The notes below the pieces were generated by a model. That model searched no databases, was not told the origin of the DNA, and saw nothing but the letters and a program-made list of their open reading frames with translations. From Escherichia coli (GTDB lineage: Bacteria > Pseudomonadota > Gammaproteobacteria > Enterobacterales > Enterobacteriaceae), in the NCBI RefSeq assembly GCF_016903815.1, contig NZ_CP069973.1: a stretch of DNA of 64,000 nt; one strand, given 5' to 3'. The stretch's first letter is position 1; the number at the start of each line of letters is the position of its first letter. The translations under genes and the position numbers were made by a program. Shown one piece after another: positions 20,760-22,694 of the stretch.

Positions 20760-21197
20760 TCAGCCAGCAGGTGAAAACGCATCTATCACCTTGTGATCGA
20801 TACCTTCATTCTCCCCCGCCAGTTCGGCACCGAGCTTCGCCATAAACTCGACTAAAAATTGCGCGTTGTGCTGTGCCAGCTGCTTGCCTCTTGCGGTTTG
20901 CATGGTTTGCGGTAATTTCAGTAACTTTGTCTGGAAATGATCCAGCGCGTAGCGTTTATCATCAAGCGGGCGATGCTGTGCGAACGGATCTTCGCCATCA
21001 AACAGCGCCAAGCCCAATGCCCCTGAAACGGCAAATACGCGCGCCAGGCCAATCGCCCCCAGGGCTTCCAGCCGATCCGCATCCTGGACGATTTTAGCTT
21101 CCGTTGTTAAGGGGGCGATTTGCGCGCTGAAACTGTGAGCGGCAATGGCATGACAAACGGCCTCAATTTTCTCCGCCGGAAATTGCACGAACTCTTC
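20760..21197 (-). pseudogene. yedJ: yedJ (HD-domain phosphohydrolase) 5'-truncated by IS1
   Basis: Reading frame encodes the C-terminal part of YedJ (...[19 protein letters not shown]...) and runs without a start directly into the IS1 left end at 21198. Confidence 0.8.
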
Positions 21198-21252
21198 GGT
21201 AATGCTGCCAACTTACTGATTTAGTGTATGATGGTGATTTTAAGGTGCTTGC

Positions 21253-21528
21253 GTGGCTTCCATTTCCATCAGATGTCCTTCCTGCTCCGCTACTGAAGGC
21301 GTGGTGCGTAACGGCAAAAGCACTGCCGGACATCAGCGCTATCTCTGCTCTCATTGCCGTAAAACATGGCAACTACAGTTCACTTACACCGCCTCTCAGC
21401 CCGGTAAGCACCAGAAAATCATTGATATGGCCATGAATGGCGTCGGATGTCACGCCAGTGCACGCATTATGGGCGTTGGCCTCAACACGGTTTTACGTCA
21501 CTTAAAAAACTCAGGCCGCAGTCGGTAA
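21253..21528 (+). CDS. insA: IS1 InsA (91 aa)
   Basis: [40 protein letters not shown]... matches InsA. Confidence 0.93.
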
Positions 21529-21950
21529 CCTCGCGCATACAACCGGGCAGTGATGTGATTGTCTGCGCTGAAATGGACGAACAGTGGGGCTACGTCGGTG
21601 CTAAATCACGTCAGCGCTGGCTGTTTTACGCGTATGACAGGATACGGAGGACGGTTGTGGCGCACGTCTTCGGTGAACGCACTCTGGCCACACTGGAGCG
21701 TCTTCTGAGCCTGCTGTCGGCCTTTGAGGTCGTGGTATGGATGACGGATGGCTGGCCGCTGTATGAATCACGCCTGAAGGGAAAGCTGCACGTTATCAGC
21801 AAGCGTTACACTCAGCGCATTGAGCGACATAATCTGAATCTGAGACAACATCTGGCAAGGCTGGGACGGAAGTCACTGTCGTTCTCAAAATCGGTGGAGC
21901 TGCATGACAAGGTCATCGGGCATTATCTGAACATAAAACACTATCAGTAA
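21447..21950 (+). CDS. insB: IS1 InsB reading frame (expressed as InsAB' by -1 frameshift)
   Basis: 167-aa ORF overlapping the insA 3' end, matching IS1 InsB. Confidence 0.9.
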
Positions 21951-21965
21951 GTTGGAGTCATTACC

Positions 21966-22694
21966 CCAAAACCGTATCGCGGTAAACATAAAATTCTGGT
22001 GATCGCCGCGGACGAACGTTATTTGCCGACCGATAACGGAAAACTGTTCTCGACCGGTAACCATCCGATTGAAACGTTGCTGCCGTTGTATCATCTCCAT
22101 GCTGCAGGTTTCGAATTCGAAGTGGCGACCATTTCCGGTCTGATGACCAAGTTTGAATACTGGGCTATGCCGCACAAAGATGAAAAAGTAATGCCATTCT
22201 TTGAGCAGCATAAATCGTTGTTCCGCAATCCGAAAAAACTCGCGGATGTTGTCGTCAGCCTCAACGCAGACAGCGAATATGCAGCAATCTTTGTTCCTGG
22301 TGGTCATGGCGCACTTATTAGTTTACCAGAAAGCCAGGACGTGGCTGCTGCTTTGCAGTGGGCAATCAAAAATGACCGTTTTGTTATCTCCCTTTGCCAC
22401 GGCCCGGCGGCTTTTCTGGCGCTTCGCCACGGCGATAACCCACTGAATGGTTATTCCATTTGCGCATTCCCAGACGCCGCAGACAAACAAACGCCAGAGA
22501 TAGGCTATATGCCGGGTCATCTCACCTGGTACTTCGGCGAAGAGCTGAAGAAAATGGGCATGAACATTATTAATGACGACATCACCGGGCGAGTACATAA
22601 GGACCGTAAAGTTCTCACCGGCGACAGTCCTTTCGCAGCGAATGCGTTGGGTAAACTGGCGGCGCAGGAAATGCTGGCAGCTTATGCGGGTTAA
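21966..22694 (+). pseudogene. hchA: hchA (Hsp31 glyoxalase/chaperone) lacking about 50 N-terminal codons, abutting IS1
   Basis: Frame reads PKPYRGKHKILVIAADERYLPTDNGK... straight from the IS1 right end with no start or promoter of its own; the remainder matches HchA to the stop. Confidence 0.8.

Follow-up and report, generated by a model that had tools for sequence, protein, structure and literature searches.

The 64,000-nucleotide stretch of Escherichia coli DNA analyzed here (NCBI RefSeq assembly GCF_016903815.1, contig NZ_CP069973.1; referred to below as the window) contains a complete copy of the insertion sequence (IS) IS1, bordered on the left by the gene yedJ and on the right by hchA, the gene for Hsp31 (glyoxalase III). 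Both genes are cut short at the ends of the element. An initial annotation, made from the letters alone, had reported a complete 768-bp IS1 at 21198-21965 between unmatched 9-mers, a yedJ frame that runs into the IS1 end without a start codon, and an hchA frame that begins mid-gene and lacks its N-terminus and promoter. Each of these descriptions was borne out: no direct target duplication of any length from 6 to 14 bp surrounds the element, and the profile matches of the two genes begin only at model position 87 of 231 (yedJ) and 43 of 287 (hchA). The features of the locus, in window coordinates, are as follows:

20500-24000, no strand: minimal haplotype core, with 0-2 mismatches per 0.5 kb in all 13 sampled carriers of the locus
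20760-21197, minus strand: yedJ remnant, last 145 codons and stop, with the first 86 codons and the upstream region deleted (NF007515 positions 87-229 of 231)
21189-21197, no strand: left flanking 9-mer GAACTCTTC, not repeated at the right
21198-21965, plus strand: complete IS1F-type element of 768 bp
21198-21220, plus strand: left terminal inverted repeat (insA-proximal end), 20 of 23 terminal positions complementary to the right end
21253-21528, plus strand: insA, a reading frame of 91 codons
21447-21950, plus strand: insB frame, read as InsAB' after a -1 frameshift, with a TAA stop at 21948-21950
21504-21510, plus strand: A6C -1 frameshift motif within insA
21943-21965, minus strand: right terminal inverted repeat, pairing with the left end
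21966-21974, no strand: right flanking 9-mer CCAAAACCG, starting exactly at hchA codon 42
21966-22694, plus strand: hchA remnant, codons 42-283 and stop (NF003168 positions 43-286 of 287)
22760-22761, no strand: breakpoint of a nested deletion inside the hchA terminator; 21966-22760 (795 bp, the whole hchA remnant) is gone in 19 other genomes

By its length, its imperfect inverted repeats of approximately 23 bp and an insA/insB' pair joined through the A6C motif, the element belongs to the IS1 family. The reconstructed InsAB' protein matches the NCBIfam model NF033558 ('IS1 family transposase') with 241 bits against a cut-off of 100, and the NCBI Prokaryotic Genome Annotation Pipeline (PGAP) labels the element 'IS1 family transposase, programmed frameshift' without a pseudogene flag. 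Its identity is approximately 99.3% to copies annotated as IS1F in K-12-type strains and approximately 91% to IS1A and IS1B. An isoform private to this locus was considered and rejected: 3769 records contain copies with at least 99% identity to it. At the expected place of the IS1 transposase promoter there is a promoter-like site (21205-21232); such sites are no more frequent than chance, and the promoter and terminator scan, with a site count no better than in shuffled sequence, is uninformative on read-out from IS1. In strain S30, another carrier of the element at this site, the IS1 copy shows nine differences from the window copy, seven of them absent in the other sampled carriers, while its immediate flanks are identical to those of other carriers; this copy was possibly converted by another IS1 copy.

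The alignment of the window to K-12 MG1655 is interrupted exactly by the element. The BLAST match ends at 21197 (K-12 position 2032821) and restarts at 21966 (K-12 position 2035958), and gene order is collinear with K-12 on both sides. The initial annotation had proposed to size the loss by alignment to the K-12 yedJ-yedR-hchA region, and the missing K-12 sequence comes to 3136 bp. In K-12 this interval is annotated with the yedJ 5' end, drpB (synonymous with yedR), the small RNA (sRNA) gene rseX, a yedS porin pseudogene, and the promoter and 5' end of hchA. The earlier claim that yedR is missing between yedJ and hchA thus stands as far as that gene is concerned, but its list was incomplete, as rseX and yedS are also lost; no rseX was detected in window positions 10000-31000. 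A target duplication is the footprint of a simple insertion and not a property of the element, and its absence here is the mark of a deletion. We also looked for a 9-bp duplication combined with intact yedJ and hchA starts elsewhere, which the initial annotation had named as contrary to its reading, and found none. It is close to certain that an IS1-associated deletion took place.

An intact relative was sought with a chimeric query consisting of the window flanks and 150 bp of K-12 interior per side. The top match was strain CREC_5, with flanks 99.9% and 99.7% identical to those of the window. Alignment to CREC_5 breaks at the same two positions, 21197 and 21966, and relative to this closest intact relative exactly 3018 bp are missing. 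At the left breakpoint the intact haplotype reads ...GAACTCTTC|ACGGAGCAGG, and the interval holds yedJ codons 1-86, drpB, rseX (Rfam RF01401, 94.8 bits), an intact 357-aa porin gene (yedS), and the hchA upstream region with codons 1-41. CREC_5 represents the pre-deletion haplotype: wherever the window and K-12 differ, up to both breakpoints, it has the window allele, and its interior shares only 92-96% identity with K-12. The same two observations led us to reject the idea that CREC_5 is a carrier repaired by import of K-12-like DNA. The chromosomes of CREC_5 and FDAARGOS_1277 both measure 4,710,693 bp and have identical locus coordinates; they are probably one strain deposited twice, and the 100% identical pre-deletion haplotype is therefore known from a single strain.

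The genome counts come from a collection of 5426 complete E. coli genomes, of which 457 show the 3-kb arrangement at a coverage of at least 80%. A survey of related genomes for IS1 at this site, as the initial annotation had recommended, returned the left junction 60-mer in 450/5426 genomes; the right junction 60-mer occurs at a coverage of at least 80% in 430. The two counts differ because 19 genomes have another right end, exemplified by strain ETEC1747, in which the IS1 end is joined to 22761. All three junctions are always single-copy and chromosomal. The 3-kb segment appears to have been lost from the approximately 450 carriers rather than kept elsewhere. When the left part of the interval is taken from K-12, 4915 of the 5426 genomes match it (511 without a match); the whole interval as found in CREC_5 matches 4921 (505 without a match), with at least 99% identity in only 62 records; absence elsewhere in the carriers was judged from these match counts, not genome by genome. 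Copies retained elsewhere would yield hundreds of near-identical matches, far from the 62 records seen. One alternative is that the segment moved, through an inversion or translocation involving IS1 copies, or that the repeat led to an assembly error. It has a rationale in that IS1 is repetitive and may mislead assemblers, and an inversion between IS copies also leaves unmatched flanks. We regard it as exceedingly improbable. Both junctions recur in approximately 430-450 independently assembled complete genomes, which excludes an assembly artefact; the segment is unmatched in roughly 505 genomes; and the window, in which the gene order on both sides of the element is collinear with that of K-12, contains no second IS1 and no repeat of 100 bp or more that could have served as an inversion partner.

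Deletions promoted by IS1 next to its own insertion site are classic in the gal region of E. coli K-12, where they arise by intramolecular replicative transposition. Such adjacent deletions were reportedly described by Reif and Saedler in 1975, and a nested series anchored at the IS end is their classical signature. The locus displays several features of an IS-mediated adjacent deletion: the flanks are collinear, the loss starts exactly from the terminal base of an intact IS, the segment is absent and a nested series exists. The nested member is ETEC1747, which has the identical left junction and IS1 while the right end of IS1 abuts 22761, so that the additional 795-bp deletion begins precisely at the IS1 terminal base. 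The initial annotation had offered an adjacent deletion or recombination between two IS1 copies, and the sized deletion (3018 or 3136 bp) supports that pair of explanations; of the two, the adjacent deletion is favored by the nested deletions, which are anchored at the end base of a single IS1. On this sequence evidence the allele was probably produced by a transposase-mediated IS1 adjacent deletion.

In such a scheme, an IS1F-type element would have inserted once, in one ancestral E. coli chromosome, within the yedJ-drpB-rseX-yedS-hchA interval. Its transposase would then have driven at least one adjacent deletion by intramolecular transposition, in which an IS end attacks a nearby target; IS1 would be retained, and what lay between its attacking end and the target would be lost, leaving unrelated flanks and a net change of -3018 bp. 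The allele would afterwards have entered unrelated backgrounds, including sequence type (ST) 38, O26:H11 and others, as homologous recombination moved or eroded the DNA around it. Within one sub-group of carriers, this IS1 would later have deleted a further 795 bp to its right and erased the hchA remnant. We infer that the deletions were transposase- rather than RecA-mediated, and likewise the site of the first IS1 landing: as adjacent deletions start from either end, the original insertion possibly lay anywhere in the lost interval, and neither flank is necessarily the original target. The likeness to the gal-region deletions extends to the intact IS at the novel joint, the deletion from the IS terminal base, the lack of a target duplication and the nested IS-anchored series; the difference is that the present allele is natural and fixed in many wild lineages, whereas those deletions came from laboratory selection. 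Experimental evolution has likewise revealed IS-adjacent deletions growing stepwise from a resident IS (PMC11708052). The IS150 deletions of the Lenski lines described there resemble the present case in having a duplication-free IS beside deletions that grow from the resident element, here in steps of 3018 and then 795 bp, but IS150 belongs to the IS3 family and its precursors were seen in the time series, whereas none was found for this IS1.

Missing precursors weigh against a transposase-mediated origin. None of the 5426 genomes has, at either breakpoint, a simple insertion of IS1 flanked by a 9-bp duplication, the interior of the interval not having been searched exhaustively. The precursor junctions expected of intact insertions (the hchA 5' end with CCAAAACCG leading into the IS1 left end, and the IS1 right end leading into GAACTCTTC with the rest of yedJ) likewise gave no contiguous match in the collection. 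Because no precursor was found, the first event is not assignable to transposase over recombination between two IS1 copies, and even the nested 795-bp deletion could have formed through a second IS1 insertion followed by IS1-IS1 recombination. The recombinational route would be RecA-dependent and would join two direct IS1F copies, one in yedJ at GAACTCTTC and one in hchA at CCAAAACCG, leaving one hybrid IS1 with the outer flank of each parent. Its end product is identical: an intact IS1, unmatched but collinear flanks and a lost interior. The raw material is plentiful, IS1F-type copies being common (at least 99% identical in the 3769 records), and IS1 has hit the neighborhood repeatedly: seven genomes carry independent insertions of other isoforms near the hchA 5' end, and the yedS porin gene is interrupted by IS1A in strains including F11 and EC17CM13. 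IS-IS recombination is moreover listed in PMC11708052 as a frequent cause of missing duplications. Against this, neither predicted parental insertion occurs in the 5426 genomes, although an extinct intermediate remains conceivable; one isoform must have inserted twice, independently and in one orientation, within 3 kb; and the nested 795-bp step demands a third insertion in that orientation, i.e. three within 4 kb. We consider this route rather unlikely. Less probable again, to the point of being improbable, is a one-step event in which an IS1 copy from elsewhere was captured at a spontaneous 3-kb deletion or double-strand break, insertion and deletion forming together without duplicating the target; a proposal of this kind exists for some IS5 and IS481 events. 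The absence of a simple-insertion precursor agrees with it, and PMC11708052 reports duplication-free IS copies central to deletions and argues for such a route. IS1 is not known to take this route, however; in the same study, adjacent deletion in two steps accounted for 14/14 IS-deletion events in the long-term evolution lines; and the later 795-bp deletion starts exactly at the IS1 terminal base, as expected of transposase cleavage at the IS end. An adjacent deletion driven by the IS1 transposase is the reading we favor.

The sequences around the element bear on how the allele came to be so widespread. The window was compared with 12 other carriers (13 sampled carriers in all) by counting mismatches per kb. 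All of them are near-identical around IS1, and a divergence of 2-3% sets in at different points on each side. On the left, identity ends at approximately 19.5 kb in AMSCJX02 and MB49 and at approximately 20.5 kb in A1_136, and at least three haplotypes, 1-3% apart, are present among carriers over window positions 1-10 kb. On the right, S30, NCTC11121, MSB1_1D and AMSCJX02 start to diverge from the window at approximately 26 kb, and S30 and NCTC11121 are K-12-like from approximately 28 kb. Because one breakpoint pair lies on one haplotype core (approximately 20.5-24 kb) amid differing flanks, this pattern indicates one origin of the allele, with subsequent movement or erosion of the surrounding DNA by homologous recombination as its likely history.

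Two carriers illustrate the range of backgrounds. Strain 28Eco12, an ST38 strain, is 100% identical to the window over 40,060 bp. The reference enterohemorrhagic E. coli (EHEC) O26:H11 strain 11368 has the same arrangement and differs from the window by 0-6 mismatches per kb over approximately 10-50 kb, while its divergence at 1-10 kb is 2-3%; K-12 differs from this block by 2-3% throughout. We take ST38 to belong to phylogroup D and O26:H11 ST21 to phylogroup B1, following established typing. The shared sequence then indicates that a block of approximately 40 kb was exchanged between B1 and D backgrounds. It is well supported that the deletion is not a clonal marker: homologous recombination has carried a loss allele of single origin across phylogroups, at least to D (ST38) and B1 (O26:H11), and into approximately 8% of complete genomes.

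The IS1 allele lies 8 kb from asnT, where the yersiniabactin high-pathogenicity island (HPI) is inserted (window positions approximately 29860-60000, with a frameshifted integrase). The block common to 11368 and the window crosses most of this island. Schubert et al. 2009 (PMC2606025) described the spread of the HPI and its flanks in E. coli by homologous recombination of large fragments extending past the island, and exchange of this kind fits the block of ST38 and O26:H11 covering both the IS1 allele and the HPI. The likeness lies in a common block of approximately 40 kb with a divergence of at most 0.6% beside a flank divergent by 2-3%. The two cases differ in that hchA, yedJ and IS1 are unmentioned in PMC2606025, and in that at least 4/13 sampled carriers here are without the HPI: the island is absent at this locus in S30, NCTC11121, MSB1_1D and AMSCJX02. 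Linkage of the deletion allele to the HPI is incomplete. Spread by hitch-hiking with the yersiniabactin island, or through a favored loss of YedS, RseX, Hsp31 or the upstream part of the drpB-yedJ-dcm-vsr operon, is a tentative and somewhat doubtful explanation. A separate difference was observed nearer to the island: yodB is absent between zinT and serU, where 223 bp at 28033-28256 stand in place of 996 bp of K-12. The gene is also absent in the HPI-positive carriers and present in the HPI-negative S30, NCTC11121, MSB1_1D and AMSCJX02.

The remnants of yedJ and hchA are, as far as their sequences tell, dead. RefSeq annotates both as N-terminally incomplete pseudogenes in every carrier inspected. 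PGAP describes the yedJ remnant as 'HD domain-containing protein, missing N-terminus' and extends the hchA pseudogene back to 21954. A full-length HchA of approximately 283 aa with a start codon and promoter is not encoded: the hchA remnant has no promoter, ribosome-binding site or start codon and begins 15 bp 3' of the in-frame insB TAA, although the position of Cys185 (CHG motif) is retained. Expression of a functional N-terminally truncated Hsp31, or of an InsB-HchA read-through product, was rejected as unlikely; the TAA stands between the two frames. Of the possible starts, an ATT codon is the one that stands 2 nt from the sole Shine-Dalgarno-like GGAG, and the first GTG (21999) is without a ribosome-binding site. 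The changes in the remnant are, in addition, mostly non-synonymous. Lineage-specific substitutions among the carriers number 7 in the 729-bp remnant and 11 in the 6269 bp of flank compared with it (Poisson p = 4e-4), and 6/7 in the remnant are non-synonymous (F104S, L133I, A134T, G160S, G203S and S262T). This is the pattern of an unconstrained pseudogene that appears to be evolving neutrally. Two considerations weaken that reading: the evidence consists of seven substitutions, a small sample, and the flanks used for comparison are mostly coding and under purifying selection, so that any non-functional sequence, however inactivated, would be expected to show some of this excess. Within the remnant, four substitutions lie in 37 bp at 22235-22271 (three synonymous, one A138V); they are fixed in all carriers and absent from CREC_5 and K-12, which points to a clustered event, for example conversion of a short patch.

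The element itself is not new to the literature. The portions of PMC6963479 (2019) available to us identify 28Eco12 as an ST38 strain and contain an inventory of its ISs that tabulates this IS1, unmatched flanks included, as an insertion in hchA. The element and the genome sequence are the same as those treated here; those portions make no mention of a 3-kb deletion, of the loss of the yedJ 5' end, drpB, rseX and yedS, or of other lineages. An IS1 with unmatched flanks is thus already in print at this site and annotated in hundreds of public genomes, and the event is a standard IS1-anchored deletion. What is added here is the precise extent of the loss with its complete gene content, and the pre-deletion haplotype, together with the evidence for a single origin with recombinational spread across phylogroups, the nested deletion that favors the adjacent-deletion route and the evidence that the hchA remnant is dead.

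The importance of the locus is modest, and the present understanding of IS biology is unchanged by it. Its carriers, which include the ST38 carbapenemase clone and a reference EHEC O26:H11, are without Hsp31, which defends against methylglyoxal, heat and acid stress; DrpB, an accessory protein of the divisome; RseX, an sRNA that represses OmpA and OmpC; and YedS, an alternative porin. For these functions, expectations based on K-12 are not transferable to approximately 8% of the E. coli sequenced. The locus also offers a clean illustration from nature of a stepwise IS1-anchored deletion, and exemplifies a gene-loss allele moving between lineages by recombination beside the HPI.

Several further observations concern the neighboring genes. 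In K-12, yedR (drpB), yedJ, dcm and vsr are on one transcript (PMC6131387), and dcm-vsr lie directly downstream of the truncated yedJ in the window (19275-21197). Because these genes share a transcript with the deleted yedR and yedJ 5' end, carriers are without the upstream part or promoter of the drpB-yedJ-dcm-vsr transcript. In O26:H11 strain 11368, vsr has an internal stop (20258-20728 of its locus), as does cbl further downstream. K-12 W3110 has an IS5 between yedS and hchA (PMC2072959). Between dgcQ and yodC, approximately 108 bp at 16429-16537 are unlike the 41 bp found at the same place in K-12, and this segment is possibly a repetitive extragenic element.

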